From IMG/VR virus record IMGVR_UViG_3300033146_001382, positions 64,001 through 128,000 of that record: a stretch of 64,000 nucleotides of DNA, one strand, 5' to 3'. The notes under the pieces are model-generated. The model worked only from the letters and a program-made list of their open reading frames with translations. It had not been told where the DNA came from and made no database searches. The DNA comes from a virus. Shown piece after piece: positions 290 through 60,675 of this stretch (the stretch's first letter is position 1; each line of letters begins with the position of its first letter). A program made the translations under genes and the position numbers.

Positions 290-3200
290 TTGGGAGAACA
301 TATAGTAAGTCATGATATAAAAGACTCTAGAACATCAAGTAAAAGCGGAAATACACAAGGTGTTTCTGTTGTAGAATTATCTAAAACGGATAAAGCGAGT
401 CAAAAGAAACTTAATGACGGTATAAAAGAAATTAGGTCTATTATTAAGAAACAGGCCAATGACACCGTAACTTCAAAATTATTAAGTTTAATAGAGAAAT
501 TGATTAGTGCCACTAATCAAGGATCTAAAATAAGTAGTTCTGAATTAAAAACACTATTAAATTCTATTGTTAAGAATCAGTTTAAAGGGGGACAAGGTTC
601 CCAGACTAAAGCTACATCTACAGCTTCTGGTGCTTTAAAGATAGACACTACTTCTATTATAAAACTTCTTACAGATAATACTAATTCAATAACTAGTGCA
701 GTTATAAAAGCTCTAGAATCTAAGGGTATTTCTATAGATGATGCTTCTATAAAACAATTTCATAATACTATGACGTCTACTGTTAAAGATATTATACCCG
801 CTAAATTATATTCTATAATAGGTGAACTTAATTCTACATTAGATGGAGTAGTTAAGTCCAATCAGGTAGTTGTTCAAGCCTTTAAGTCTATGAAGAAATT
901 ACGTGCTAGTGGTGGTGAGTTAGGTGTGAGTGAAGTAATACCATTCATGAGAAATCTTGAGAAAGGATTTGTAGAAGTTAAGTCCTTAGTGTCCAAAGTA
1001 AATGGGCTTAGTTCTAGTATATCAGCTATTCCTAAAGAACTTAAAGGGGCTATGGATGGTATTAAAGATGAACTTTCTAAAATGAAAAAAAGAACCCAAA
1101 ATAGAACATATAGCGTAATTAAAGAGGTTTCAGATAGTCCAGCAAGTGCTACACAGGCTGTGGTTAAACAAGTTGCTAAGGAGTTAAGTAAGGTAGGAGA
1201 AAAAGCATCTGACCCTCAAATTAAGAAATTGATCACTAAAATAGATAAATTTTCAGGTTCTTTGGATGATTTTCCTAAATTTATAGATGCCTTAGATAAT
1301 TTTGCTAAGGCTGTGACTAATGCTAAAAGTTTAGATCCAAAAACTATTCAAAATATTTTGGCTCCTTTACAGCAAGTTTCAAAATTTGCTCCAAAGGGGC
1401 TAAAAGACGATGTATTAAGTAGTAAGCCATATAAACTTCTAATGTCTCAAATGAATAAGCTTATAGAAGTAACTAAACAAATAACTATTAAGTTTAATGT
1501 AAAAACTAATAATTTAGACAAACAAATAGATAAGGTTATTACTAAAAAAGAACGTTCTGTAGATATTACTTTAAAATCTAAGAACTCTGATACTGTTGTT
1601 AAAGAGTTAGAAGATATTTCTAAACCTAGAGAAGTTATAATTACACCTGTCATAGCTACTAAAAAAGTAGTACAATCTAGTGTTACACCTTCTAGGGCAA
1701 ATTCAAATAAAAATGTGCCTCAAAATGTATTACAGGCTAATAAAAGACAATTAGCCTGCAAAGAAAAATCAAATATATATAGTCCTGACGAAGTTAAACA
1801 ATGGTCTAATACACTGAATAGTAAAGTGGATGTATTAATAGGATCTTTAACTAAAGCAGCTAATAGCAGAGGCGCAGCAATTAATGATGCAGATTTTGTT
1901 CTACCTCCTGTAGTGGAAAGTTCAATAATTAAATTGATAGCTATCATAGATGGTATATCTAGTAGAAGAGAGAATCCTTCTGAACTTAGAAAATATATGG
2001 ATAATTTATCTGCTAATTCACGGTATACCCCCTGCATCTCCACTCAGTCAAAACGGGACATTAAAGAGGTTTATGATGTATTACACTCTGTAACTACTGA
2101 CGCTTTTAGTGACATAGTAAAGGCTTCTGAAGAGGTAGTTAAAAATTTTGAGAAACTTAAAAAATTTCCAGATCCTGTTACAAATGTAACTAAAGATACT
2201 AAACTTAGTGTTGCTAAGACTACTGAACCAGTTAAATCAATTCAACAAACTAAACCAGTTAAGTCTACAGAACCTAGTAAACCTAGTAAACCTATAAAAA
2301 CTACTAAAACTACTAAATCTACTGAGTCTAATAAAGATGCTATAGACAGTACAGCAAAGCGTAATTTAGCTCAAACAAATGGTTCTGTTATACCACGTAA
2401 ACCAGGAGCAAATGAAAATCGAGGTATACCTAGTTCTACACAACAAGATATTTATCAATATACTGAACGTAATATAGATCCTGGAACCACTACATTTACT
2501 AGTGGAGCTGATATAGGGGTAGGTGAAAAGACTAAACAAATAGTACTTGATCATGTGGCAGATTTATCAAAATCTCTTTTAGATTTACAACAATATATAG
2601 TAACTACACTTGATGAAGAATTTACTAAAGTACGAGACAAGTCTAATAAGAAGAACTGGAAGATTGTAGGTAAGACTGATACAAATCCTATTTCAGACTA
2701 TTTTAAATTAACTGAAGGGTATAATAGGAAAAAGTCTGGGAAGCAATATAGTTTTAAAATAGCTAATATTAAAGCTTTACAAGGTAAAACTGGTAGTGAT
2801 TTAGAAGATCCGACTTCTTTAATAAATAAGTTTAAAGAAGATGTATCTAAAGAGTTATTAAACGCTAATAAATTTAATTTAGCAGAATCAGTGGGTAAGT
2901 GGCTTAAACGTTTCTCTACGTCTGATATATCTAACTGGAAGGGGTTAGGCACTGATACTTCACGTAGATTAGTAGGTATCAAAACTAAACATGATTTAGG
3001 TAAAGGAACTTCCCCTTCTAAGGGTATGGTTAAGGCACTAAAAGGACTTGGTAACGATAGATTAATAAATATATTTGAAAAGACTATTAGTGAGATAGAG
3101 TCAGACCGTAGGCTTAGCGAAGAGAAATTTAAAAGGTCTCCATTACTCAGAACTATTGCTATACCTGCGGCACGTTTGACTTCCACAGGTGCTACAACTT

Positions 3201-6200
3201 TTGATACTGCTTCAGGGAGTAAACGTGTAATACCTAAATTTGCGACATATAAGACTGGTTTTGAAAATATTTTTGAGTCCTTACAAAAAACTAAATCTCT
3301 AGATATAGACAAAAGCTATGCTTCAAAGATACGTAAATTAGGAATTAGGCCTTCTGGTTCTAATTTTGAAGAAGCTAATAAGTTATCTAAATCAATGTTA
3401 ATAGATTTATCTAGTGTTAAAGATGTAGTAGATCCTGACGGTAAAAAAAGCGTAAATGCTGATGATGTGAGAGCTGACTTAGCTAAAAAGTTAGAGGCCT
3501 CGGTAGTAATAAAAGCAGGAAAATTAGCTAAAGCTAAACATGTAAATAGCCCAGAAGATATATTAAGTAAAATAGATACTAGTATTTATACTGAATTTGC
3601 TAATGGTACTAAAACTATGGAAGAATTTATAGCTGCCACTAGTGCTGCTGGGGTAGCTGCTTATGATTTAGTTAAAGGGATGGAGAGCGTTGAATTTAAA
3701 AATATTTACCAAATAATTAAAAAGTTACTGGAAGGCTCAGCAGACACCAGCACTCCTTTAAGAACATTAGGTAATAATCCCGTTTATTCTAAAAATATTC
3801 GTGATTTTGATTCAACTATTGGAAAACTTATTGGTACAATACCTATCGCTGAGGCTGCTAGGCCTAGACGGTCAACGCACCAAGAAAAAATAATAAACTT
3901 GATGAGTATGAGTACGCCTATATATAGAGAAAAAGGTGCTATAGGTCTGCAAGGTACAGAGGCTGAAGGCCAAAAACAGTTTCTTAGAGACTTAAATCTG
4001 AATCTTGCTGAGTTTGTGTCCAATACAAAAATATTAACAACTGCAGGTATGGGCAAAGATAGACTACCTTCAGATGTAAAAACTTTTTCTAGTTTAGGTA
4101 TACCTGATGGACAGGCTGGTACTATTTTAGAGTATAGGAAAGATTTTAGACATGAAGATTCAAAGTATTTAGCACCTCTTAATGCTACTAATGTAAAGCT
4201 GTATTCAGATTCATTAGCTGAGTTGTCTCCAGCAGGTGCTCAGTTTACACAGTTAGGTAGAAATACTGCTAATGTTAATAATGCTTTAGCATATAGAAGT
4301 GGAGGTGTCGGAACTGATTTTCCTAGTTTACGTTCCAATAGAGAGTCAGAGTTAATTGCTGGGGGAAGGTATGGTACTCAAGGATATGGCTTTAATGTTA
4401 CAGCTGAATTACGTAATACACCTAATACGTTCGAAGATCAAATAGTTGTATCAGGTAAATTAGCTGATGTCCTTACATCCATAACTAAAACTATAATGCA
4501 GCCAGATAAACTAGGTAGATTAGCTCTAATAGGGAGTGATGGACAAATAGCTGATACACCAGAAGGCTCTGTTAGTGATATTGTACCACAACAATTAGTA
4601 AGTGTAATTGAACAGGCTAATAGGGTATTTCAAGATGTATTAGGAATAAAACAAGAGTATAAAGGACGTGCTGAGGATGCACTAATAAAAGAGGTTACAA
4701 GCGTATTAACTACTGTAAGAGGAAAGGATGTACAGGTTCAATCAGCTAAATTAGCGGAAGTATTTTTTAATTACTATGGTAGGAAATTTACTACTAGATA
4801 TGGCTCTAAAGGTGTATCTATAACGGCTCAAGGGGGAAAAGAAGAATTAACTGGGAAGCAGCTCAATGATTTATTTGCAAATAAGAAAGTAAAAGTATTA
4901 AACCGAGAAGAGCGAGCTACTGCTGGCTTAGGAACAGCTGCACTACCTAAGAGTATGGGCCAGCTTGTGCAAGAAATATATAAAGAATACGCACAAGAGT
5001 TAGAACTTTCAAAGTCAGATTTAAAGCTTTCAAGTCAAGCACTTGTAAATAGTGGTAATAAATTTATGTTAAGTATGTTCTCTGATGCCTCTTATGGGGT
5101 TGTGTCTGATGAATTAGATCTTACAGAGCAAAATAGTTTATTTGAGGAAACAAAAAAAGCCCTAGCTAAATTAGATTTAGATTTAGCTAAGGATATTAAA
5201 GGTATAGAGGGATTAAAAGAATTTTATTCTAATATGTCTGGGGCGCAGTTGTACACTGAAAAACCTATAGACATTAGAATTAGTTCACATGGTATTGCTA
5301 AACGTGGGCTTCAAGGTGAGAACATCGAAGCCATTATGAATAATGTTATTAATTCTGGTGAAGAAGAACATACTTCTTTAGTAACTAAATTCTCACCTAC
5401 TGCATATAGGCATTTGTTAGGTACATCTACTGATACCTCTGGCAAGTTCCCAAGTTTAAATGAGTTGAGTAAGGCTCTAGGTTTTGAGAGTCAGGCAAAA
5501 GGTAAAGACAGGGCTACAGTTGTAGAAGATATGATGAAGCTACTTAAATCTAGGCATATTAAAGGTTCTTCTGAGGAACTAACAACACAAGCTAATAAGT
5601 TGGCAGATTTAGAAATAAATTCTAATTTTTATAGTAGTATACGGGATGAGTTTGGTGAAAGTAGAAAAAGTTTGGTGGGCTCAAAATTTGTAGAACTAAT
5701 AGAAGAGCCTCATGCAAATCCAGCATGGAGTGAGACTGATATAAAGAAGCAGGTAGCAGGCCAACGTTTAAATATACCTGCATTTGGGGCTTATGCTACA
5801 GTATTTGGAGAGCAATCAAAGTTTATAAAGCAGTTAACTTCGGATGTACCATTAGAGGCTAAAAAACATTGGGAGTATTTAAAAGCCCTTCAAGTGTTAA
5901 ATACTGACAGTTCAGATATGGTAGATAGCCTTATGGCATCTGCACAGGTAGTAGATGTGTCAGATTTACGTAGTTTTACTAAGTCTACAGGTAAATTTAT
6001 ACCAGCATCACAGATGGTTAATATTGATTCAATGTCAGAAGAGGAAGCAGGTAGGGTGATGAATAACTCCATCTTAGACACTGCTAAATATCCTGGCCCG
6101 ATGAATTTACAAATTCCAAATACTAAAGACCCATCTAAACGTGAGTCATTTTACGTCCCTGGGGCTCTTGCTAGAGTTACTTATCCAGAACCTAATATAG

Positions 6201-9200
6201 CAGGAGAGCGTGGACTAGATGTAGTAGCTAGACGATTGCAGTCTATTGTAAATGCAGCAAATAAGGTAGATAGTGTTAAGGGGAAGACTGGAGAAGATGG
6301 CAGTACTAAACGTTGGGATACTATAGCTAGAATAAAGGCTAAATTAAATGATTATAGATCAAGAGTTACTGAGATAGTAGGGCCTGACCCACAAACTAAA
6401 AATTTATCTTCTAATGAGGTTGGTCAACTTGAAGGGATTCTACAGAAACTATTAAAAGTATTAGACCAAGCTCCTGCTGATAATAGAATGCTTTATAGTA
6501 ATCAGAAGTATTTAAGTGGTAGTACAAGGGGTGAGGTTGTTAGGGATATTTATAAGACTAGAGGAGCAGATCAATCTCAAGCTAAAGTATACCAAACTAC
6601 TATAAATAGTGCTGTGGATCAACTTATAGGACCAGATGGAGCCCCAAACCCTAAAATGCCTCAATTTGCACAAAGATATGAACCTGATGCTAATTTATTA
6701 GGAGCTAAAGATGCATTAGGTGTCACTTCACTATCTAATTTTGCACTTAGTTTGGATGTAAAACCTGCTTCTGGAGAGGACAAACTAAAGGACGCATTAA
6801 AATCATTAGAACGCGCAAAAATTGAATATTATAATACATTAGCTAAGTCAGTTCTTGGCAAAACTGGTTCTGTACAGGAATTTTTATTTAATAGAAAACT
6901 GCCCGCTGTTATGGGTAAAGCTATAAATGCTACAGTAGATAAAACTAAAGATTTAGAAACTTTTAGTAAAGAACTTCTTTCTATAAGTAATTCTTCAGGT
7001 GATATAGGTGTAGATTTAAGTTCTTTAAGTGAAGCAGCTAGTACTATAGATGAAATAAAGATAAGTCACGCTAAGAATGTAGAAAAATCTAAAGCTAAAG
7101 GTCTACCCGTCTTGCAACAGCATGAGATAGGGATACCAGAAAATTATGCAGCTAAGCTTCCAACATCTTTTGTAAAGAGATATGATATTAATGAAGGAAG
7201 AGTAAAGGAATTACCAAAACCTATTTTTGAAAAGTCCAACTTAGCGAAAATGTTAACATATAGAGAAGAAGTAAAAGCTGCAATGCCCAGTACTGCTCCA
7301 GATATGCAGACAAAGATGAAAGCTTATCTTTCTTCTGAGTTATCTCCTTATATAGAAAGTTTACGTTTTCCGGTCACTGGGGTCTCTTCTATTCAACCTT
7401 ATGAGGCTAAATTACTTAAACCAAATGAGGACGGTACACGTCAGATGGCTAAGCACTCTTTGATGGTACCAGGAGTACCAGATTTCGATACTAGTAAATT
7501 TGATACTATAAAGGTTAAAGTAGAAGCCGTGATAGAAGGCTTAGTAGAAGATAGGGAAGCAGAATACAATAAAGACACTCCTGATTTGAGTAGAGTAGAC
7601 AAATTAACTACTACTATTTCAAGTTTAGATAAAGCATTATTTGATGTACTACCAAAATATACTGCTGCGCAACAAAATCTAGATTTTGATGGTGATCAAA
7701 TTCAATTACATGCAGCCAAAAAATCATTAGCTAGACAAGAAATAACACAGCATTTTAAAACTATAACAGATTATGATAGCCAAAAAGATACTACTGCTCA
7801 AGCTTTGAGATCTGATTTTACTTATGATGCTTTGATCCCATCTACAGGTAATTATACATTAGCAGAACAACAACTAGCTTTTGAAAAGAAATTTCCATCA
7901 GAAGAAGGTTTTGGTTTCATGACCAAACCTTTCTTAACAAAAGATTTAGAGTATTTGAAACCTGCAGAGCAGCTAGACATTTTAAGTAATTATCCAGGAA
8001 CTGAAGGTGCAGAAGTAACTCCATTAACTGTACTAGATAATTTATTACCAGAGTTATTTAGAAATGCAAAGCAGATGAGTAAAATAATGGAAACTTTAGA
8101 AGCAGTAGTACCAGGTGTAGATGATGAGGGTAAGTCTACTTATAGTAAGGACCTCCTAACTGCTTTAAGCAATATGAAATCTCCAGATGGTAAGACTAAT
8201 GGTACACAGGTTGATGTATTTAAAGAAGGTATAAAAAATAAGTTATACGACACTAAAATGACTAATGCTATTAATGCTAACTTCTTTAAGTTAAATACTG
8301 GACAAGATACTGAGGCACTTAATAGGCAATTAAAACTATTTGAAAGAAATTTAGGTTATGGTGGTGGCCTTATAAGACAAGGTGCAAAATATAATCCAAC
8401 TGAAAACCTAGCTCAAAGGTTTCCATTAGACTTAAAATCAATGGGAAATATTATAGGTGAAGAATTACATACTATGGTTAATGAGTTTGTTCGTTTTGGT
8501 GAACAGAAAGGGCTAGATGTAAAACATGCTGGATCTTTACCAGTAGCTACTGAGATGGCACAATTAATATCACAAGGAAGCTCTGGAGTAAAAAAGTTGA
8601 TTGATAAAATAAATACTAAGGGTGGTTCTTATGGAGAGCTAGCTGATTTTAAGGATGCTAACTATAAAGTTTTAAATCATAGGTTAGGCGCTATGTCTAC
8701 TGAAGATTTATACACAGATGCTACCAAAATTGCAAGTGGTAGAGGAGAACCAACAGCTAAACTTGATTCTAGTAGTAGAGACCAACTAAAAGAGTATATC
8801 ATTAGCTCTATTGGTTTTGAAGGTTTTTTATATGAATTAAGTAATCAAGTTATAGAAGGAGCACAGGAGGGATTAAAAGCAGCTATTAGTACTTGGTCAG
8901 AGTCCAAAAAACAGAAAGAATTTAAAGGTATGAATGAGGATAATTATGTAAAGTCTATTATTAGAAAACAACTTAAAGGTGGTGGGGTAAATATATCAGG
9001 CACCGCTGAAAATCCTTTAATGCCTTTATACAAAATGAGGACTTCTTCAGCTTCAGGGTATGGCCAAAGAAAATTACATATGGATAAGTATGGCGATCCT
9101 GAAGTACCAGAATTAGATGGTATTTTTGAAGGAGATGAAGCCAAAGCTTATGTATCTAAACTTAAAGAGGCAAAAGCTGTGGCAAAGAATATTCAAGATG

Positions 9201-12200
9201 CTTTAACTGATTTTAGTGCTAATAAACTAGGTAATCGTAGAGGCAGCTATAATATGCTTTTAGCTAGTGATATAGACAATATTTACAATGATCAACGTAT
9301 AATCCAAGAGTTAGTAAAATCACTTGAAGGTAAAGAAGATACTATAGAATCTAGTGTAGCGGATAGGTTAAGTGGTAATAGCCCTATGAGTAATTTAGCT
9401 ATTGAGGCATTAAGTAAGCCAAATAACACAGTTAGAAAAGAATTTCTAGAGATTAAGGGTAGAGCTGTATCAGTCCCTAGTATAGGTCAAGAGTCAGCAG
9501 CTATTTCGAACGAGGAGTATATTACCACTGCTTCTATGTTAGCTGAAAGGGATCTACCTATGCCTGTACAAGGTGATACTACTAATAAAGAGTATGCTGC
9601 CATTCTTATCGAGCATGAAAAAGCTGTAGATAAATTAAAAGATAAATACTTAGCTGATGCACTGGTTATAGCTCAAACTGATACAATATTGAAAGCTGCA
9701 ATGAGTAGGGCAGAAGAAATAGGTTTTGTAACTAGATTATTACCCGAGGATGCTAGATCCTACAATGACCGTAGGCAGAGGGTTACTCAAGCAGCTCAGG
9801 AAAGTGCTAATAATGCTAATCAGAGTACTAACACTAATAGTAACTTAGGGGTGGATATACTTCAAAGGTCTATGCCAGCTGGAGGTGCTGGTACTCCAGA
9901 AGGTAGTTTAGTTAAATTTAGTGGAGGCCCGGCAGTTGACGTACGTATTGTAGCTGTAGCTGAGGGAGTAGGTATTTTCTTAGGTAAAACTGCTGGTATA
10001 GCACAGACTACTGAAGAACAACAACCTAGATTTAGTATTTCCTCCGAGTTGGAAGAAAAAATAAAAAAAGCAGAAAATATAGTTAAAGACATAACTGGAG
10101 GGTTGAATAACGCAAAAGGCGATAGTTTTGCTAATAAGTATAGAGCTAGTGGCCTAAAAGGTGGGTATGGTAATCGTCAAATTTCTGAAATAAAAAAACA
10201 AATGCAGGGTTTTCAAGCTAACGAAGACATTTTGGACTCTACCTCTTTATTAGGTACAGGTATTCATGCTAAATTAGAGGGAGGCTACCAGAGTAAGGGG
10301 TATGCTACTGAAAAGCCTGTGAGATACGACTCACCAGAAGGGGAAATTTCAGGCACTGTAGACGCTATTAAATATGAAAATGGTAAAGCCAAACATATAG
10401 TTGATATTAAAACTACTAGTGCTCTTAATTATGAGGATTTACATAGAGGAGTGGCTCGATTCCAAGAGAAGACTGGTAAAAAAACACCTACCTTAGAAGA
10501 GATTAAACCTTATGTAGGGAAAGCCCTGAGTAGTACTAAATTGGATGATGTAGCTTCTCAGTTAAATTTGTATCTCAGAGCTACTAATACTAATGCTAAA
10601 GCATCAGCACATTTCTATAGTAGGGAAGATCCAGACCTAGAACCTATAAAACTAGATCAATTTTTTGATGCAGATAGATTGAAAGCAGATGTTACGGCTA
10701 TAGGACAAGCTAGAAAGGAGATTAAACGTGAAGGTGGTACGTTTGCACCTACAGCTTCTTATGAAGAAGCTAAAATTATAGCTAAAGAAACTAAACCAGT
10801 AACACCAGAAAGAATAGAAGAATTAATTTCTATAGCTACTGAATACTATAATTCAGTTAAGCAGGGGCAACATACACAGAAGAATATGCCAGCTTCTGGT
10901 GGGTTAAGGGATAATGAACTATATACTATAGGTATAAGGGCTAGGGAATACCAAAGCCAATCTAAAGCTTTTGATGATATGGTAAGAGCTACACCTGTAG
11001 TAGAGGGTAAAGAAACTTATAATGTACACCAGAATTTAACAACTTTGCATGAAAGAGCCAGAATTACACAACAAAAAAGAGGTGTAGAGACTTCAGGGCC
11101 TCAATTTAATAAATTCAATGAGGAAGTGCAGAGTAAAATAACCGAAGCCTCAAAAAAAGGACCTGCAGGTGCCGAATTTAGTGCTTTAATAACACATCTT
11201 AAAGATACCTCACAAATTGATGGTAGCAAGATAAATGCAGCATGGAAAGCTTATCGTGTGGCAGTAGGGGATTATTTTGTAAAAGAAATGGCAGAGGCAA
11301 GAAGGCAGCTAACTAATGACTCTGCTAATGATGATAACATTGTACCTCGTTTTGGCGAGTATAGTAAGGTAGTAAAGAATTTCCAACGGTTTGTAAAGCA
11401 AGGTATTGGTAAAAAAACTGATATATACACAGCTAATTCTCAGTATTTTAATCCTGAGTCAGCTAGAGGCGCAGGTGTATATATGGATACTGATGATTTG
11501 ATAAAAAAATCTTCTAAGCCTTTGGGTGAAGACACTAAATTAATTAGTCTTTTTAAACGTATAACCTCATTGGAAGAAAATGAAGTACCTATACCTAGGG
11601 ATGCAATTAGGGATGTACTAGAAGATTTAATGGATATGGATCATGCATTAATTAGCTTGTATACTGATGCTGAATTAGTAGCTAAAATAGGTCCTAAAAT
11701 AAAGAATGGTTGGAGGTTTGACAGACTTAAAGGTGGTTTGTCAAAAATGCGAGCAGCACTTGAGTTACAACTAAATCAACCTGTAAAAGAGTTATATGAT
11801 GAAGACCAAATAGCTTATTTGAAACAGGTATTAAAAGAGTTGAAAAGTCTAGAGACTGTTTATATCGACTTAGATTTAGATACTGACTCATTTGAAAATA
11901 CCCTTGGTGAATATAAATTTCCTACATTAATACCAGTTCCTAAACAATTACCTAGGAATCAGCAATTGGCTTCTCACTATAAGAACGTTGAGGGTTTAAA
12001 ATCTCATTATAGAACTCCAGAAGCTCAAGGTGGTGCAAAAACTGGAGATTCCTTTGTTTATCCTATTAAAACCTATGGTCCAAGTGGTAAACTTATGGAT
12101 AACCAGAGATTTGTTATTTCTAAGTGGGGAGAAACTATTAATTCTGCAGGAGATTCTATACCTGTTTTAAAAAGTAGACTAGATGATTTAAATAAATCAC

Positions 12201-15200
12201 TGGTTGATGGTAATAGAACATTTAGTGTGGCTATAGAAAGGGTAGTTAAGTGGGGAGCTGCTGCTACTTTAGTATATGGTGGGATGAGTTATATTAAAGA
12301 TGCAGTTAACCATATGGCAGATGTAGAGACAGCTATGGCTAGGTTGAGAATGGTGATGAATCCATTAACTACTGATTTTGATGCTCTACAGAAATCAGCA
12401 TTAGGGTTTGCTCAGCAATATGGTGTAGAGACAACAGATGTTTTAGGTAGTATGAAGGTATTTGCTCAGCAGGGGTTATCACAAGGTGAGGTACAAGATA
12501 GGACTCAGACTTCTACATTAGCTGCTAATGTTACTACTTTAAGTGCTACAGATGCTACTGAAGCATTAACTGCTTCTATGAAAGTGTTCAGGTCTGAGGG
12601 CGAAAATTCTATGAGATTTCTAGATTCTTGGAGCCAAGTAGAGGCTAGAGCAGCAATTACAGCTGGAGATCTTGCTGACGCTATAAAAAAATCAGCATCA
12701 GCTGGTAAAAATGCAGGATTTACTTTTGATGAACTAAATGGTATGATAGCTGCTATAGGTTCAGTAACTCGTAAATCAGGTAAAGAGATTGGTACTTCTT
12801 TGAGATTCATTTTTAGACGTATTTCAGCTGATAAAGCTCCTAAAGCTCTTAAAAATGTAGGGGTAAGCACTACTACAGATAAAGGGGAACTTAGGTCTGG
12901 TTTTGCTGTTTTAGGCGACTTAGCTAGTGAGTGGGATAACTTAGCTCAAGCACAAAAATTAAGTATTGCCCAAGCAATAGGTGGTACTCGTCAATATAAT
13001 CAAGTACTAGTTTTAATGGATAATTGGGATCAGGTAGTTAAAAGTTTAGGGGATAGTTTAGACGCCAAAGGTTCAGCCGAGAGACGTAATCTTCAGTTAA
13101 TGAAGACTTATACTAAACAGTTAGAACAAACTAAGGCAGTTTTTTCAGCTTTAAAGATAGAGGTAGGTAAAGTAGTACTACCTAGTTTTAAAGTAGCTAT
13201 GAGTGGTATAAGAGGCCTCATTGAAGTAGTAAATAATGTACCTGAGTCTATAAAACTAGCTGGTGCTGGTATAGTTTTATTCGTAGGTTATATTACTAAG
13301 GGAGCTTCTGCTCTTAATTATATTATAAACATGGTGGATAGAACTAAATTATCGTTTGCTGCCTTAAAGGATGATTTTGCTAAAGGACTTGGGCAAGGTC
13401 TGTTTGAATCTTTTGGTAAAGGTAGTCCTGAGCTAGATTCTAATTTATTTGGATTGTCTAGTTTGGGGGATTCTGGTACTAGGAATATTAATGATATGAC
13501 TAGTTCAATGGGTAAGTTAGCCTTTGGTGTATTAGCAGCAGGGCAAGCTTTTAATAAATTTTCTGGTATAGTAGTTAAAGATACTGGAGGAGCTTCTAAG
13601 GTAGTTGCAAAATACCTAAAGACAGCAGGTAAGTTAGTTTCAGCTGTAGGCACTGGAGCACTTTTAGCGCCAATACCTGGTCCAGTTGATGATATTATAG
13701 GAGGTGCCACTGAGTTCGCTGGGGAAGCTTTAAAAGGGACTGCAGGAACTTTTGATTTCCTAGGTGATACTATGGGTAAAGGGGCCCAAGCATGGATAGA
13801 GAATTTTGCGTCTAGTAACTCTTCTGCCGTAAAGTCAGTAATGCCATTAATGGCAACTCTTGGAGGATTAGCAGCAATGGCACCTATAGTCAGTACTGCT
13901 TTTAAAAATTTAACTCAGACCGCTAAAGATTATAAAGATGAGCAACTGAATAGACTTGAAGTAGATGCTAAAGAAATAGATTCTATACAAGGGCTTATTA
14001 CTTCATATAAAGACCTTCAGTCTCAAAAACAAAGAATCGCAAAATTGTCTACCCCAGAGGAGCAGGCAAAGAATATTAAACAAGGTGACTACAAAAGTCC
14101 GGTGTTTGAAGAAATAGATAGTTTAAAGACTACTAGAAAATTTAATGCTTCCTTAAGTGGTTTAGATTCCAATATGGTTGATGGCTTTGATGAGTTTGGG
14201 CGAGTTATAATTAATAACAAAGGTAATTTAAAGGAATACTTAGAAGAATTAAAACGGGCTAAAACGATTTCTTTGGCCTTGTCAAAAATTAAAATTACTT
14301 CTAGATTTACAGAAGACTTGACTAAGACAGATGGTAATCAAGAGTGGAAGTACCAAGTTCAACAGCTTGCTAAGGAATTCCCTTTAATAGGTGATATGCT
14401 AGCTAAGGGTATATCAGTAGGGCCTAAGAAAGCTTTGGAAGTGTTACAAACTGAGCTAACTCAGCTTTTAGACGCAAAAGCTGAAAATCCTATGTCCACA
14501 GCGTTTGATCAAGATATAAAGACAGCACTTACTGCTCATTCTAAAATACTGAAAACATTTGCTTCTGAATACTCTGAAATTTCTAAAACTTTAAGTGGTA
14601 TTAGTATTAGTGGTACTACTTTATCTGATGTAACTAATTTATTTAATTCAGGGGATGCCTTGGCTACTTTTGATTTACAAGCAGCATATGAAGATAAATA
14701 CAATATTGCTAGTGTGAAAGGTACTGTTAGTGGTAAGGATATAGCGGCATCCAAAATACTATCTACCCAAGCAGGTGGAAATTCATCATATGTAGAGGCT
14801 TCTCGCTTATTAACAGAGAATAATTTATTTAGTGCAGGTAGGCTACCTAGAGCTCCAGATGCTACTGGAAATATTTCAGTAGAGAATAATGATTTTGTAA
14901 CACTCAATAAGGATTTTGCTAAAGCGCATAATATAGCTACCGAACAAGCTATTTTAATAATAGATAAAAATAACCATACGTTTCTGCAGTATATAGATTC
15001 TATTTCTGGTGCACCTAAGACTAAAAAGATTTCTAAATGGGATCTAGCGAGAGCTGCCAGGGGATTTTTTCCAGCAGAGGCTATCTTACGAAAAACTAAA
15101 GCAGATATAACTAAATTAAATACATTCATCTCTGGGGCTTCAGCAGGCTTAATAGGAATTTCTGATAAGGGGTTAAAAAAACGTCAATTTAGTTTAGGAG

Positions 15201-18200
15201 AGAAATTTTTTGACCAGGTGTCTACTGATACTTTGTTACAATCTAATAAGGGTTTTGATATTACTAATAGAACTTTTGGTGAACCTAAGTATAAAGAAAA
15301 TCAGTCAAAAGATTTTATAAAGAAATACTATGATCCATTACAAGAGTACAACTCACTTAAATCAAGGCTAGGTGGGGAGGAGTCAACTCCGAAGGATGGG
15401 GATCGTTTGGGCAGTACTGCTAAAAGGTTTAAAGAGCTACAGGATATACTTAAAAATAACTCTGTTGCATTTCAATATAAAGCTGCAATAGAAGATTTAT
15501 CGAAAACACTTTATGCTGGGGAGCGGGCCATACGTAAAAATATTGAGGCAGAGAAGTCTAGACAGACTATAGACAAAGAGACGTCTGGATTCCTACAGGG
15601 TAAGACTAAAGGGATTAGTTCCCTTAATTTAGGTGTTAGGGATTATAAAGACTTAAATCCACAGCAAAAGGCCTCAGTAAAATTCAAAAGTTATGATAGT
15701 GTAGCTAAAAGTATATTAGTACAAGAGACAAATTTAGAGGGGTTACTTAATAACTATAAAGAGTTAGCCAACACATATGCAGATGTAAAGGAGATAAAGT
15801 TAGTATCTAAGGCATTCGGTGCAGTAATGCAGCCAAAAAGACATACAGAGTTATTATCCGCTATGGATAAAGTAGGTGGGGATAAAGGTACTGCTCAGTT
15901 ATATTTAAAGATGTCAGAGTTAAAATCCCCATTAGATGACATTAATATTAATACAGCTAAAACAGTTGATTTGCTAGATAAAGATAGTGCTAAAGTTACT
16001 AAGGCTAAAAATATAGTAAATTTAAATTTAGAAGAGGCTAATAAAAAGAAATTACGTGGTGAGAGGCTGAATACCTTTAAAACCGAGTTTTCACCTGGAG
16101 TAGTCATTATTAAAAATTTAGATATGTTATTAACTAAAAGAGATTCAGCTGCTAAAGTTGGGGACAAAGCTACTGTAAAAATGTTAGATTCTTATTTGAC
16201 TAAGTCATATGGTAAGCTCATAAAAACGTTTGGTGTAGCAAATACAGTTAAATTAGCTAAAGAACTTTATTATAAGGATGAGACTAGGTCACGTACGTCA
16301 AGGGTTTTAAGTTTAGGTCTCCACGGGTTGGGTACAGACCCTACTAGGTTGACACAGGTGATAGAATCAAAAAAACTTTCTGACGCTGCAAGTGTTGGTA
16401 ATAAATTAACTAAATTATTTTCTAAAGATCATCCTTGGAAGTCCTATATAGATAAAAGATTTACTAACTATACACCTAAAAAGACATCAGAGGCTATGAA
16501 TTTAGAATCTACTTATTCAAAGAAAGCTAAGTCTCCTTGGTTTGCGCCAAAAACTTTTGAAAAGGCACTATTGGTGGGTAATATAGTTACGGCATTTAAA
16601 GGAGCCTCACTTAAAGAGAAAAGAGACACTGTATTAGATAATATAGTTAAATTACAAAAAAGAAAGTCTGCACTATCTACTAATGACGAAACTACTAAAT
16701 CTAGAATTGATGAAGAAATAACTACTAATAAGTCACTTTTAAAAAGGGATTTAGATCCTAAAATTTATTTAAATAATATTCTAAAATCAACTGCTAGAGC
16801 TGCGTTTGTGGCTTATGAGGGTGCTGACACTTTTAAAGTGTCAGCAACCAATAAAGAAAATCTAGCAGTTACTGCTGGTGGCATTTTTATGTTGATGAAG
16901 GGGTTAGAGGGAAAGATAGGAAAAGAAAATATGCCAGAGTATTTTAAGAAATTCTCTAAAAAAGTAGGCCCAGCTTTTACAGAAGCAGCAACATCAGGGG
17001 ATTTTTCTAAAGTTACATCCTTAGGCTCTGACACAAAATCGTTTTTGGGTGAATTTACAGGATCTATGAAAGAGCAGTTTAAGGAATTTAAAGATGGTAG
17101 TAAGTCATCCGGCACAGTTAAAGATGATAGGAGTGATTCTGAAAAATTAAGGGAGTTGTCTAAATTAAAAAAGTCAGAGCAGGCGTTAGCCGATCTTAAA
17201 AAGCAACTATCTGCTGGTAATACAGGGGCACTAAGATCTATTGAAGCAGCACTTTATGCTTTTGGTGGTGTAGCTACATTAGGTTGGAAAGCTTCTAAAG
17301 GTGAAACAGCTGCTAAAATTAAAGATGATAAAAAGTTAGCTGAGGCACAATCAAAAGCTATGCTAGAATATACAATTAAAAATGCATCGGAGGTAGATAA
17401 TTATATACTTAATAATGAAAAATCAAAGAAAGAGAAAAAATCAAATATAGCTGCTAAGCCTGCCGGAAAGCCAGATGACATTATTATGGATACCAATAAA
17501 AATTTTATTGATATTGTAGAAACACTAAAGGCTTCTGGAGGCAGTTATCTAGAGGTAATTAAAAAACTACAAGATGTACTAGGAAATGATAAGTCATTTG
17601 CAAATCTTATAGTAGATGTTACTAGGATTCAATCCTCCTTAGAGAACTTTAGAGGTGAACTTATAAAGACATTCAGTACTTTTGATGATAAGAGAATACT
17701 AGCGCCTATTAGGTCTTTAAATGGTAAATTGACTGGGTTTGGTGGTGATATACAACTACCGGTTAGTGAAAGAGAAATGTCCCCACAACAAAGATTTTAT
17801 GCTGGTGGATCAAAAGAGTTACAGAGTATCTTTACACTAATGTCAAAAGCTGCCATGGTACAAGAAACTAATTTAAGAGCTATTGGTTCTGTAAGATCTG
17901 AAATTAGTACTATTACTCAAAATCTTTCTAAAAGTACTGAATCCGGAGCTTCTGAAAAAGATATAGTTTATTGGGAAGAAGAGTTATTACGACTTAATGC
18001 TATATTAAATAAATTAAAGCAAGATACTGGTAAACTTAATGAACAAACACAGACATTAAGTACTACTATGCGTGCAGCTAATAAATATGCTAATGCTATT
18101 TATAAATTAAATGATGCATTAGAAGACATAACGGTAGATCACATTGTTTCAGGTTTAACAGGTTTAAAGACTTATTTTAAGTCGTTTAATAAATTAATGG

Positions 18201-21200
18201 GAGGGTCAGATTCATTAGCAGTACAGCCTATAACTCCAGAGCAACAAAGAATGGGGACTAAAGTAGGGGTACCATTAGAATTTAATATATCTACTAATAA
18301 GGATATAGAGAAGGCACAATTACGTACTGAACTTAAGAACGCTTCTGATACTAAATCTAAAGCGGCCGCTCAACGTAAAATAAATGATTTAGAAGAAAAG
18401 TATAGACGATTGGAGTTGGAGCAGTCACAGAAAGAAGAGAATTCACGATTAACTTCCAATATGCGGCCATATACAGATTTTTACAAAGAGATAACTCGTC
18501 TACAGGTCAGTGGTGGTTTAAATGACAAACAAATTAGTGACATAGAAGAAGTTAAAGTAATAATTAATAAAGCTATAGGTGGTGCTACTAAACCTATACC
18601 AATAGAAGATGCTATAAAACGATTAAAAACTAATGAAGATAGTATGGGTAACACTCAGTTTAAAATGGCTATGAATGAGTTACTTAAATTTAAGGAGACA
18701 GGCACTGAGTTTGTTTACCAGGGTGTCGCTGACTCAAATGAGCTTCAAGATGCTATAAATAGATTACGTATAGCATATGAAGATGAATTAAAGACTATTG
18801 CAGCTGATAATGGGGAAACTACTATATCTACCGCATTAAGAGATGAGGTAGCAGATCCTATAGTTGGAGTTATAAATTTATCTAATAAATTATTAGAAGA
18901 GTTAGTTACTGAGTTTGTGGGGCAAACAGCTACGGATATGGTATTAAAGGAATTTGAGAAAAAACAAGTAGTGCCTAGTTATCTTAAGGCTGTTTCATCT
19001 TCTAAAGAGTTAAGTACATCACCTAAGAGTAAAGTATTTAGAAATAGTTTTACTACCCCAGCTGATGAATTAAAACCATTACCTTCTGTCATAGATACTG
19101 ATTTTAATAAAGTATTTAATGATAAAAAATTCTTGGCTCAATCACCTGTAGAGCGCACCGAGTATAATAATAGAGGGGCAACTCCTAATATGTTTGAAAA
19201 AATTGAAGGGTTTATTAATCCTAATAAGACGATTAAGACATATGAAAAGCCTTCTATTATGGAGAATGTGTATATTCCATCTAGTACGCAAGATAATATA
19301 GAAACTAATGAAATGGCTAATGGTATTCTAATTTCAAAATCACAGGATATTTCTACAATGTCTGGAAACCCTCAAAAAATTATTACTGATCAAGAGACCA
19401 AAGACATTCTAAAAGAGATAGCTGTAAACAGTAAGGCAGTAGACAAAGAACAACCAAAAGAAGCCCTAAAAAAAGCTATAGGTGGTAGAATATTTGGTGA
19501 AGGTGGGCCAAGAGAAGATAAAGTCCCGGCTTATTTAAGTCCTGGGGAATTTGTTATACGTGCTGCTTCTGCACAGCAGATAGGCTATCAGAATCTGGAT
19601 GTAATGAATAAGAAGGGTAGAGTACCATTAAAGTTTAAAGATGGAGGACTAACACCAGAACTTATAGGTAAGGCTCATACATACTTTACTGACCCAGATG
19701 CTGAAGCGCCTATACCTACATTTGATTCAAAGAATGAAGAAAAATTTAATTCTAAGTTAACCAAAAAGTACCTTGATTTATATAGATCATTATTACCTGA
19801 AGAAGCTAGAGAAAATGAGTCTATTAAGTTGGCATCTACTTTTCGTGGTTTTTATAATACTTTAATAGATTTAAATGAGGCTGAGGTTTTTTCAGACGAC
19901 GAACTATTTGCTGTAGATGCTTCTATGATGTTAAATAAGTTTAAAGAGATGCAAAGTAATAAAGGTATATTAGGCTTTATGCAACGTTCATTAAGTAAGA
20001 AGACTGGGGCTACAGCAGGTGCAAGAGCACTCACAGGTTTGGATAAAGTTGATTTGCTAAAGGAAATAAATACTTATGCTGACGGTGGGAAAGCTATTAG
20101 TACTATTACAGGTAAACCTATTCCTACTGCTGAAGAAAAAGAAGTAGGTATGTCAAAGATGCGTGAGGCCTTAGGATTCGTAGCGTCAGTTGCTCATCCT
20201 TATACTTCTATCCCTACCTCTATTTATGGTATGTACCAGGGATTTAAAGAAAGTGGTTTTAATATGAAGTCTATGGTAGAAGGGGCCGGTATTCTAGAGA
20301 TAATGAATTTTATACCACAAGCTAAAAAACTAGGTAAAGTTGGGAAATTTTTAAGTAAAGGAGTAGGTAAATATGTAGATAACGCTGGAGATATTAATGA
20401 TTATTTTAATATTACTGGTAAATTAACTAAAGCCCCAGAAACGTATAAAGTGACAAAACCTATACATAGGGACTTTGGGCCATTAAGTGCATCATTTAAA
20501 GATGGCGGTTCAGTACTTTCTGAAGAAAAACAAAATGAACACGATGCTTTATATTCAAGGTTTCCAAGTAATACTGAATCTAATTATAACTCAAAAAGTA
20601 CTGTTAATTTAAATAAAGTGAGAAGTTTTATAGGTGACTCTACAGGAGTAGCAGAAGTTGACGCTTCATTATTTAATAAGAGGCTTAATACTTCTATTGG
20701 AAGTCGTAGATCTGTAGCTAGACTACTTAAAGATTCTTATATGGCCCCAGATAAAAATAATGAAGTAATGAATACTGATGTTTTAAAGTTAACAGCTAAA
20801 TCTAATAGTAAGCTAATGAATAATAAAGTACGAAATTTTATAGGTGATTCTACTGGTGCAGTAGAGGTAGATGATACTTTATTTAATCGTAGGCTTAATT
20901 CTTCGGATGACTTACAGTCAGTAGCTGATTTACTTAAAAATAATTATAATAAAATTGATACTAATAATGAAAAATTAAATACTGATGTTTTAAAACTTAC
21001 TGAAGAACCAACTAAACCTTTAAATATTAAGAACTTACATGCTAAGTATCCTAAATCAAATAGCAGATTATTAGCTAATAATAAGGAAGCTACTACATCA
21101 TATCATATCCCTATGGGGGATGGAAGTAGTGAGATATCTACTAATGATTGGCCTCCATCCCAAAATCTACTTGACTTAATTAGAAATAACTGGAGTTCGT

Positions 21201-44418: not shown

Positions 44419-47400
44419 ATGTCAAATGAACCTATAAACAAATGTCAATATTGGAATAAACATGAGCCTCTTCCGTGTATATATTGGGATGAAGAAACTA
44501 CGGTGTGTAATTATAGGGGCGCCGAAGATCAAAATTCTGTATCATCTACCTATACACCAACTCATTTTCCTTATTGTAATTTAATTGGTACTTCCGTAGG
44601 GTGTTCTAGCTATAAATCTCCTAATCATGGTGCAACTATTGCTAGGTGTATTTTGCCCGATCCTAGAAGACATGTATGTAATAGAGCTACAGGAAGAAAA
44701 TGGGTAACAGCTGAAGAGGATAGTGATACATATAACGAGAGTGGGGCAGTGTTACTTGATTGGCAATTTGATACTATAAATGGATACAATAATGGGGCGT
44801 GTGACGGTGTTGGAACCAATGTAACATGTAGTGGCTACGCTCCATATCATTTAGGCTTTGGAGTACTTACTCCTTCTGATAGTGTAGAATTAGATACTTT
44901 TGCCTTAGGTAGATTTTCAATAGATTCAGAATTTGATTATAGATTACCTACTAATTTTGTTATTTATAATATTAGGGCTGCTTTATCTAAGTGTTATTGG
45001 TGGAGAGTAGATAGTGGTAATTTTATAGTCGAAGAGGATAGTACTATAGCTTTAGAAGGTAATTGGGAGTGTTCTTGCCCTAATGACACTAGTTTTTATA
45101 GTGAGTTTACTTTAGATAATGGTCCCCCATGTAATGGGTGTAAACCTGAATGTCCTAGTTATACTGGTGTTTGCTGGAAATATTGTATAGATGTAAAAAT
45201 GCAGGATGGAGATCCTATTTTAGCTGAGCAGATACATGAATTACGTTATTACCATAGAGAATCAAATTGGACTACTGAAGCCATTCAATCTATATTTATA
45301 GATGAAGGTGATATTTTTACATGGCATGGGTCTATAGATCCTGCAAGATGTGCTGAGGGTAGTCTTGGTCAACAGTTAGACTCTGAGTGTGTAGATGGTG
45401 GTGCTACTTTAAAAGGGGCACTATCTACTACTATAGGTATAAATGGTATGATTGAAGATTATCGGATACCTGCAGTTAAAGTTACAATGCCATCTTTTGA
45501 AGAGTTTACTATTGAAACTGAGGATGTAGAGTTAACTCAAGGTACAACAGTAACGTCAGCATTATCAGATTTTCCTACATTAGTTAGATCAATTCAATTA
45601 CTTCCTTTATCTCCGATAATTCAAACAGAATTTACTAAACATACTACTGTCAATAATGAAAATTTATTATTGTTTGAGACACCATTTTTAGCTAAAGATA
45701 TTAGTGTTTTGATTTATGGTAAATTATTTTATTCTAAAACAGCTTATGCTATAAATATTAGTGATAGTAAAGTACGAGCAATTATACCTAGGGAGTTATA
45801 TCATTTTGATGATATATATTTATTAGAGACTACTTTAGGTCCAGAAGACTATGATATTTTTAAAGCTAGGTTAGTATCTGCTTTTAGAGCACTAAAGGCG
45901 TTAGATCCAGATAAGGTAATAGTTAATTCTTTAGCTAATGAGGATTTAACTTTTTTAATGGATGTTCCGGTACTATCTAAAGATAAGACTTATAATGGTT
46001 CTAGTGAAAATACTATTTTGGTATTTCAAGAAGTTAATGATACTTTTACTTTTGATAAGATTAGTTTTATTAAGAGAGTAGTAGGTGGTATGATGTTTCA
46101 AGATGATTTTAAAATTATAGGAGATAGAAAACTAGTACGTCACCCCATTCCTAATTTTGAAAAGTCATTTATGACAAATTTAAATCATAACGGAAGTATA
46201 TCATTCCATTTTTCTCCGTTTATAGATGCGGGGATAGAAACTACACCAGCATATACATATAATGATGTTAAGCATATAGACCCATTGACTGGAGATCTAT
46301 TTATAGGGAGTAAGAAATACAAAATTACGATAGTAACTTATTTGCTTGAAGTAACTTCTACTGTTGAATACGAACGAGAGTTTAAACCTATAGGCTCTAA
46401 TGGGTATGCATTAATAAAATTGAACGACTTGTATATTAATAATATTATAGAAAATTGGAAAGCAGAAAAGATTGTAGTAACTTATGAGAATGAGGTATTA
46501 GCTCCAAATGGTACTACTAGTATAGAATACTCTGAATGTGAAATGGAAATAGTACATCATGGTGGAGACCATAAAATGCCTAGTAGATGTGTACTGGTTA
46601 AACCAAGAAATATAGCTAATTATGGCTCAATTTGTGGAAGAGTATCAACTGTAAAAATAATTAATCTCACTTATATAGAAAAAAGAAGTTTTGAGCAACT
46701 ACCAGAGTTAAATTTAGGTACATATGAAGAGGTTATTGAGGAATCTGATGAGGTGCATATACTTAGTGCAGGCACACTTGAAGGGTCAGAGTCTAATTTT
46801 ATTATTGTAGATTATAAATTTGTGCTTACTTTAGCTACTATTATGAAAGATAGTACTGGTAGATATTTTACAATGTCTAGAACTAAACCTATAGGAATGG
46901 TTAAACAAGTAGCATGCCCAGATGTGGAGATTTTTTATAGTTGGGAAGGTAAGTATACAGAGTATCAAAATTTCCCTCATTGTAGATGTTGTGGTCCTTG
47001 GACAGAGACTCATATGTCAGATGATAACATTAGGAGGAACTCTCCATTTTGTGGAGACCATTTTGAATGTGCAGGTTGTTTGATTGGGCCCATGTGGTGG
47101 CCATATAATAAATGCCGGGATTACTCTGGTTACAGACAAGTAACTAATTTGGATAATTGGGATCTAGAGATGAGAGGCCTTTTTCAAATGAGGGATGACG
47201 ATGGTCAATGGGTACATGGTGCGCACGATATGAGAATGCTTGGACCGGATAAGAGGGATGGACGTACTGGTTTGTATTGTCCCCCTAGAGCTTGTACATG
47301 TCCAATGCTGACATACAATTATTACTTAAGGGGTGAGGCCTACTTTGTGGGATATGGTAGAGTAAGAGCTGGAGTTAGTCAAAGTCAGATAAGTATTTGG

Positions 47401-50034: not shown

Positions 50035-50445
50035 ATGGAACATTTAGTTTGTAAAAAATGTGGAGAGCTAATGTATGAAAGTGCGCTGGCTACAACATTT
50101 GCGTATCATGATGAGTTAGATATAATAATGACTAACGACGGGAAGCTAGATATTGATTCAGCTCCTAAATATATGGTATACTCTTGTGTAAAATGTAAAA
50201 GTACACATAAAGTTTATTTTGAGGATTATTTTAGAGCTAGACAAGAATTAGCGCTAACTACTCTAGGTAAAATGCGCTCAGACACTTGTATTACATCGTT
50301 AGATAATTCTATAACTTATAGTGAGGATAGTGGTGTAGAGTTTTGTGGTATATGCCCCGGCATATTTGATGGTGACGGTGTATGTACTATGGATGTAATA
50401 AAAAATTGCACTATAAGGAGTTTTATACTTGAAAACAACTTATAA
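50035..50445 (+). CDS. Zinc-finger-like protein (CxxC x3), 136 aa
   Basis: CKKC, CVKC and CGIC pairs plus further Cys; SD aaggag. Confidence 0.7.
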   Translation: MEHLVCKKCGELMYESALATTFAYHDELDIIMTNDGKLDIDSAPKYMVYSCVKCKSTHKVYFEDYFRARQELALTTLGKMRSDTCITSLDNSITYSEDSGVEFCGICPGIFDGDGVCTMDVIKNCTIRSFILENNL

Positions 50446-60658: not shown

Positions 60659-60675
60659 GGAGCTTAGGTATAAAT

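Follow-up and report, generated by a model that had tools for sequence, protein, structure and literature searches.

A candidate single-chain RNA polymerase of the multisubunit lineage in the front half of a giant phage tape measure protein

Why would a gene for a phage tail protein carry active-site motifs of a cellular-type RNA polymerase (RNAP)? The question is raised by a stretch of 64,000 nucleotides (nt), here called the window, which covers positions 64,001 to 128,000 of IMG/VR virus record IMGVR_UViG_3300033146_001382, a record of 189,441 bp with 33% G+C, nearly all genes on one strand, and an estimated completeness of 72%. At issue is the open reading frame (ORF) 290-23560, and all coordinates below are either window positions in nt or amino acid residues (aa) of this ORF. 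A reading made from the sequence alone had singled out segment 4382-5809, equivalent to aa 1365-1840 of the 7,756-aa ORF, as the β-like half of an RNAP joined head-to-tail to a β′-like half. We propose, with a probability of roughly 0.7, that aa ~1340-1810 constitute the β (Rpb2)-type catalytic barrel of a single-chain, multisubunit-lineage RNAP, which is followed by a β′-type part with a DFDGD motif and is embedded in the N-terminal half of a giant tape measure protein (TMP) of the phage tail.

The product of the ORF is a phage TMP. Its PhageMin_Tail domain (PF10145) scores 98.9 bits against a cut-off of 33.2, its matches to PHROG tape-measure families reach E values down to 3.9e-66, and in a profile over 29 full-length homologues the tape core is the best-conserved block of the whole giant protein. 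The start codon is TTG, with AGGAGG 8 nt upstream, and no stop codon separates the polymerase motifs (aa 1381-2469) from the tape core (aa 4034-4232); the polymerase part lies N-terminal to the tape domain within one ORF, which is the layout of gp96 from the Thermus phage P23-45.

In E. coli β, residues E813/D814, K1065, K1073, and R1106 contact the nucleoside triphosphate and the RNA 3′ end. The same set can be recognized in the giant TMP as E1382/D1383 of FED, the lysines K1499 and K1507, eight residues apart in GRKFTTRYGSKG, and R1672 of AKR within PIDIRISSHGIAKRGLQGENIE, each at the place where the sequence-only reading had put it; the equivalence is one of motif-level alignments, not of residue-by-residue superposition. 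The proposed pairings come from local alignment to E. coli β, in which FEDQIVVS pairs with β from residue 812 on, PIDIRISSHGIAKRGLQGENIE with β 1093-1115, the stretch containing PSR, and KKQVAGQR with β 1262-1269 (KAQFGGQR). When the family profile was compared with E. coli RpoB by hhalign, the top match was that of GRKFTTRYGSKGVS to β 1063-1076 (E 0.27, not significant alone), and the FED block aligned with residues 156-192 of the β subunit of phage AR9 at E 0.0023. Given the composition of the protein, chance would yield 9e-4 copies of the pattern GxKxxxRxGxKG and 4.5e-3 copies of DFDGD per protein, and the two occurred together in one of 20,000 shuffles.

Conservation was counted over 77 family members that span the whole module. 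Retention of the catalytic residues, claimed at the outset for this one protein, extends to 76 of 77 diverged homologous TMPs for each of E1382, D1383, K1499, K1507, and R1672, and equally for D2465, D2467, G2468, and D2469 on the β′-like side; neighboring positions are nearly as constant (R1503 in 73, G1508 in 76, K1671 in 75, and E1680 in 76 members). The position of the histidine in the cellular RHG motif, where this protein reads RYG, is Tyr in 42 members and Phe in 31, and the active AR9 non-virion polymerase likewise has RYGNKG. The GQR tripeptide is present at the C-terminal end of the β-like half, as had been said, but its identification with the GGQR motif of β is weak: while the Gly is kept in 76 of 77 members, the Gln is variable, and position 1826 is Lys in 38 and Arg in 30 (68 of 77). 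Here sequence resemblance has to carry the case, because the structural alignments end at aa 1810 (model residue 471), short of GQR, and the segment is modeled at low confidence, with a predicted local distance difference test score (pLDDT) below 50.

The β-like half can be assigned, confidently for a predicted structure, to the double-psi β-barrel fold of β/Rpb2. An AlphaFold2 model of aa 1340-1860, built from a 61-row alignment that included two remote homologues, reached a pLDDT of 80.9 and a predicted template modeling score (pTM) of 0.78, and its strands and helices surround the motifs in double-psi barrel order. Among 350,542 PDB chains searched with Foldseek, the top 50 were all of β type, 49 of them cellular β subunits and one a subunit of the phiKZ non-virion polymerase; the best was E. 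coli 6n61_C (E 4.5e-4), and Thermus aquaticus 1ynj_C had a probability of 0.91. VIA-align, which is independent of Foldseek and was run on 48,161 PDB representatives, placed second-largest RNAP subunits in all of its top nine ranks: those of African swine fever virus (ASFV), Pol I, the plastid-encoded polymerase, Xanthomonas (β), the phiKZ and AR9 non-virion polymerases, Pol IV, vaccinia virus, and Pol III. These nine have Z scores of 9.6-12.6 over 163-183 residues at 2.9-4.8 Å (~3 Å except for vaccinia), with the ASFV subunit at Z 12.6 and a root-mean-square deviation of 2.9 Å over 168 aa, after which Z falls to 5.3 for the next, unrelated match. Re-examination of Foldseek's top chains gave 400 with Z ≥ 8, and the best 50 of these 400 were all of β/Rpb2 type. 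Across both sets the structural alignments have Z scores of 9.6-12.8 and 163-186 residues, and E. coli β is aligned over 693-1243, the span that holds E813/D814, K1065/K1073, and R1106. The placement of the motifs in a double-psi barrel, which the sequence-only reading had left to a structural model, is thus borne out for the β-like half, where the top matches of both searches were all second-largest subunits of RNAPs.

The modeled barrel departs from its cellular counterparts in two confidently predicted insertions. A mostly helical segment of ~145 aa (pLDDT ~96) separates strands β4 and β5, where cellular β has just ~15 residues (by comparison with the Thermus thermophilus β alignment in Supplementary Fig. 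8 of PMC10770324), and ~115 helical residues replace the region between FED and the lysine motif that in bacterial β is the size of the flap.

Other searches were less informative. A first model of aa 1340-2539, built from 27 sequences, had a pLDDT of 70 and a pTM of 0.38 and did not build the barrels; it was taken as uninformative, not as refuting, and the matches that Foldseek returned for it, helical-repeat proteins only at E ≥ 0.045, are meaningless. Sequence searches of the PDB with the single sequence and with a 6-sequence profile gave no match, a search of BFVD gave weak ones (E ≥ 6e-3), and a language-model feature search was uninformative. The single-chain enzymes gp96 and gp64 of P23-45, gp66 of phi14:2 (a phage of the crAss-like kind), and QDE-1 appear in no structure match list, an absence that does not exclude relatedness.

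On the β′-like side, NLDFDGDQIQLHAA has an aspartate triad of the Mg-binding β′ type. Pfam RNA_pol_Rpb1_2 (PF00623) matches 17 of 27 family members below its cut-off, with a best E of 2.7e-5, and the top hhalign match of the family profile to E. coli RpoC is the DFDGD loop, paired with β′ 457-479 at E 0.015, which carries little weight alone. Every full-length homologue has the β-like part and then the β′-like part, as in the order rpoB-rpoC, with no break in the frame between them, so that the single-chain arrangement described earlier stands. The spacing needs correction: β′-like sequence does follow GQR in the chain, but its first conserved block, YVPGALAR...ARRLQ (6152-6241; P1957 in 77 and R1981 in 74 of 77 members), starts at aa 1955, ~130 and not ~110 residues after GQR, and DFDGD lies 639 aa after GQR. 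Between these blocks, RFPVTGVSSIQPYE bears a tentative resemblance to the RAPTLHRLGIQAFE strand of E. coli β′. There is also a hint of a clamp: in the low-quality first model, aa ~1870-2206 matched the archaeal RNAP clamp (3qqc_A, Z 8.8), the N-terminal half of AR9 β′ (7s00_d, Z 8.0), and Rpb1 19-516, among unrelated helical bundles of equal Z. The giant ORF has just two cysteines in 7,756 residues, and the zinc-binding elements of cellular β′ must therefore be absent.

Table 1. Window positions of the giant ORF and of the polymerase and tape measure features within it
Feature	Position (nt)	Strand	Basis
Giant tape measure protein ORF carrying the polymerase module	290..23560	+	7,756 aa, single open frame
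Conserved block (aa ~800-3000), polymerase module plus flanks, common to all giant homologues	2687..9289	+	Profile over 29 full-length homologues; BLAST colinearity
β/Rpb2-like double-psi β-barrel region (aa 1340-1810)	4307..5719	+	Model part aligning to RNAP second-largest subunits
FED (aa 1381-1383); E1382/D1383, proposed equivalents of E. coli β E813/D814	4430..4438	+	E and D in 76/77 homologues
GRKFTTRYGSKG (aa 1497-1508); K1499/K1507, proposed equivalents of β K1065/K1073	4778..4813	+	Conservation, hhalign
Mostly helical lineage-specific insertion of ~145 aa separating barrel strands β4 and β5	4823..5251	+	Model pLDDT ~96
PIDIRISSHGIAKRGLQGENIE (aa 1659-1680); R1672, proposed equivalent of β R1106 (PSR)	5264..5329	+	Conservation, local alignment
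AKR (aa 1670-1672)	5297..5305	+	Motif position
GSKFVELIEEPH (aa 1797-1808), last barrel strand, counterpart of T. thermophilus β GQMFIMKL	5678..5713	+	Long strand, model residues 452-466; motif comparison
GQR (aa 1824-1826), possible but weakly supported counterpart of β GGQR	5759..5767	+	Local alignment only
Possible β′ N-terminal (clamp-like) region (aa ~1870-2206)	5897..6907	+	Suggestive only, poor first model
RFPVTGVSSIQPYE (aa 2359-2372), resembles β′ RAPTLHRLGIQAFE strand	7364..7405	+	R2359 and P2361 in 76/77 homologues
NLDFDGDQIQLHAA (aa 2463-2476), putative β′-type Mg-binding aspartate triad	7676..7717	+	Conservation (76/77), Pfam, hhalign
NLDFDGD (aa 2463-2469)	7676..7696	+	Motif position
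Tape measure core domain, PhageMin_Tail PF10145 (aa 4034-4232)	12389..12985	+	Pfam E 4.5e-28

The homologues of the module form a closed family. By word-indexed search, 28 proteins of 4,530-7,930 aa (26 of them at least 6,555 aa long) were recovered, with 33-70% identity over aa 1300-2700, and when 1.84 billion cluster representatives were scanned exhaustively with HMMER, 111 matches resulted, nearly all of them giant TMPs or TMP fragments. The family comprises about 100 clusters at 50% identity, is widespread in metagenomes, and occurs on contigs of up to ~325 kb. Conservation along the shared block of aa ~800-3000 peaks at aa 1301-1400, the FED region, with the tape core alone scoring higher, and within the polymerase module the motif blocks are the best-conserved part. 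The selection for activity that the sequence-only reading had supposed was addressed with the ratio of nonsynonymous to synonymous substitution rates (dN/dS, Nei-Gojobori). The closest pair, the window against L001, is saturated at synonymous sites (dS 1.7-2.2), which makes its ratio unreliable, and less diverged homologue pairs were therefore used; between these related loci dN/dS is 0.02-0.27 (e.g., 0.11 at dS 0.58 and 0.17 at dS 0.66), indicating purifying selection on the module.

The remote homologue P0117 (L043:2-6712), with 20% identity over the β-like half and with DFDGD, is a separate gene, truncated by the start of its contig, and it shares 19 nt, read in a different frame, with a giant gene downstream (L043:6694-16712, at least 3,339 aa) whose product has LigD 3′-phosphoesterase and RNase H domains and no tape-measure match in its visible part; the arrangement is either a split form or a frameshift. 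In host assignment, only three short contigs from metagenome-assembled genomes, of 16-25 kb, were matched (L082, L083, and L084), and their labels (Woesearchaeota, Gammaproteobacteria, and Fermentibacteria) are discordant; these are probably phage contigs mis-binned into genomes.

What might the polymerase do in a tail protein? The β-like half is real, correctly folded in the model, and conserved, which, by analogy with gp96, would mean that the phage probably injects its own polymerase together with its DNA. We posit that the giant TMP would sit in the tail and on ejection would reach the host envelope before the DNA, as is expected of gp96, and that its polymerase part could then transcribe the first-entering (pre-early) genes without the host enzyme; this transcription might also help to draw in the long genome. 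Both catalytic activity and injection of the giant TMP polymerase are here inferred.

Several findings weigh against our proposal. Pfam RNA_pol_Rpb2_6 (PF00562) has no match at E ≤ 1 in 27 family members and none at E ≤ 10 in the contig, whereas 14 of 14 control genomes matched; PF00623 gives this particular protein 20.6-22.4 bits, below the cut-off of 25.3; deeper sub-profiles run against the PDB reached AR9 β at E 0.11 and Rpb1 (residues 480-503) at E 0.077, both sub-significant; and in the 1,200-aa model (aa 1340-2539) the β′ barrel was not built, all motif segments having pLDDT < 50. A tblastn search of 50,697 phage records, P23-45 included, found no relative among cultured phages. On the side of mechanism, the tail tube would have to hold, or let through, an enzyme cargo of ~3,900 residues, and the phage's transcription strategy is not readable in full because the contig is ~72% complete.

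Three other explanations were weighed. The giant ORF could encode a polyprotein that is cleaved after translation, releasing a free virion or non-virion polymerase (e.g., one packed in the head like the crAss-like cargo) and leaving the C-terminal ~3,800 aa alone as the ruler. The central position of the tape core, which is not near the N terminus, would fit such a scheme, as would the poorly conserved linkers between conserved blocks (aa 400-700 and 3000-3300) and the remote homologue P0117, whose polymerase-like gene comes to an end where a second giant gene starts in a different frame. Yet virtually every full-length homologue retains the fusion, neither a protease domain nor a cleavage motif was found, and the P23-45 polymerase remains fused to its TMP in virions (PMC10770324), and we regard cleavage as unlikely.

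Slightly less probable still is an active nucleotidyl transferase with another job, be it the priming of DNA replication, QDE-1-like RNA-templated synthesis, or transcription that serves mainly as a genome-pulling motor. The two-barrel fold is also used by RNA-dependent polymerases and by PolD (PMC10770324), but both the motifs and the closest structures are of the DNA-dependent multisubunit kind, not of the QDE-1 or PolD kind, and a family A DNA polymerase is encoded on the contig itself. We give the least credence of all to a catalytically dead relic that the ejection apparatus retains for DNA binding or as a structural module, an idea that could draw on the large lineage-specific insertions inside the barrel and on database profile matches that all fall below threshold. 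A dead enzyme would be expected to lose its catalytic residues, and here, among homologues whose identity has dropped to 25-70%, every one tested persists in 76 of 77, with the motif blocks the best conserved within the module. The single-chain polymerase built into, and delivered with, the tape measure remains our preferred explanation.

The rest of the TMP and the surrounding genes provide a setting. Region 10135-10720 (aa ~3280-3480, holding ...KHIVDIKT...), between the polymerase and the tape core, has no Pfam match. Near the TMP C terminus, a unit of ~19 residues (consensus like DKTPIPIDSSSLDGVVLEV) is repeated in ~8 tandem copies (22700-23050, aa ~7480-7600), and two longer duplicated segments lie upstream of these repeats in the C-terminal third. 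Downstream of the tape measure, the 3,409-aa product of ORF 50429-60658 carries lectin-like domains of the Laminin_G_3 and F5/8 type C families, ORF 44419-50016 encodes 1,865 aa without a family match, and 60640-63354 has a weak PHROG tail-fibre match (E 6.1e-5); the two giant ORFs 3′ of the tape measure are probably tail fibre or adhesin proteins. The virus record also encodes a ribonucleotide reductase and a family A DNA polymerase; this polymerase and a second, 1,015-aa protein (G000:C1:165407-168619, L042; 30986-34033, L036) are interrupted by inteins that contain LAGLIDADG homing endonuclease domains. Outside the window, a 947-aa hybrid sensor (G000:C1:8716-11559, L035) with periplasmic solute-binding, PAS, histidine kinase, and receiver domains is unusual phage cargo.

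The known proteins closest to the giant TMP fall into three groups, the second-largest subunits of multisubunit RNAPs, the single-chain two-barrel enzymes, and gp96. Bacterial β, Rpb2, and the subunits of ASFV, poxviruses, phiKZ, and AR9 share with the giant TMP a motif set of Glu-Asp, Lys, Lys, and Arg, which occur in that order. Among solved structures, the C-terminal half of β of the AR9 non-virion polymerase is the nearest sequence-level relative, with 24% identity over structurally aligned residues and a shared RYGxKG variant. Unlike multisubunit β/Rpb2, the barrel is here fused with a β′-like part and a tape measure in one chain, and unlike cellular enzymes it has the flap-sized region swapped for helices, carries the strand 4/5 insertion, falls below Pfam thresholds, and is accompanied by no zinc sites of the cellular kind. 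The possession of both barrels by one chain, as proposed here, would be shared with phi14:2 gp66, QDE-1, and P23-45 gp64, and gp66 is a virion-delivered enzyme within a much larger protein. The β-like barrels of gp66, QDE-1, gp64, and gp96 are, however, without FED, RHGNKG, and PSRMN, all of which Thermus β has (Supplementary Fig. 8, PMC10770324) and of which the giant TMP family keeps cellular-type versions. Relatedness to the P23-45 proteins finds no support in sequence comparison: a 27-sequence profile aligned by hhalign with gp96 1-1200 gave E 0.13 on an irrelevant segment, tblastn gave nothing, and hhalign gave no match to gp64. Nor was a second two-barrel polymerase found in the contig, which is ~72% complete, and a search for a T7-like enzyme (PF00940) shows nothing, as it had no match in the contig or in the 14 control genomes.

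It is with gp96 that the likeness in design is greatest. This 5,002-aa TMP of P23-45, with counterparts in P74-26, G20c, and TSP4, has an active two-barrel polymerase in its N-terminal ~1,100 residues, is present in virions with the polymerase still fused to the TMP, and transcribes the pre-early genes (PDB 8H2M and 8H2N; Chaban et al. 2024, PMC10770324); according to the authors of that paper, a link between polymerase and TMP had previously been unsuspected. We found no description of another tape-measure-fused virion RNAP in the searchable literature. In gp96 and, as proposed here, in the giant TMP family, a two-barrel polymerase precedes a giant tape measure in the same polypeptide, the β-like part precedes the β′-like part, and DFDGD provides the metal site; ejection, followed by transcription of the first genes, would be expected of a gp96-like protein. 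The giant TMP is larger, at 7,756 aa, and its polymerase module, unlike that of gp96, starts after ~800-1,300 extra residues and is followed by ~1,000 more before the tape core; gp96 has no clamp, whereas a low-quality model hints at a possible clamp-like region in the giant TMP. The same polymerase-ruler layout thus recurs in a sequence-unrelated, much larger protein with ~100 diverged clusters, and with a polymerase of cellular rather than highly derived phage type. If active, the giant TMP would offer a natural, cysteine-poor, single-chain β-β′ enzyme in which to study the minimal two-barrel core, a second system for the storage and threading of a large enzyme through a tail tube, and a way to learn whether fusions of polymerase and ruler have had more than one origin.

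The fusion probably arose independently of that in the Thermus phages. We marginally favor a fuller scenario, in which a β plus β′ enzyme of the multisubunit lineage, nearest to the AR9/phiKZ and cellular polymerases and still in possession of cellular active-site motifs and possibly of a clamp, became a single chain within a tape measure of ~7,000-8,000 aa in a widespread, uncultured lineage of large phages; long-tailed phages would then have made repeated use of transcription delivered by the tail, and this would not be the curiosity of one genus. One published case of such a system is known, and the giant TMP family is a distinct, larger, and widespread version of it.

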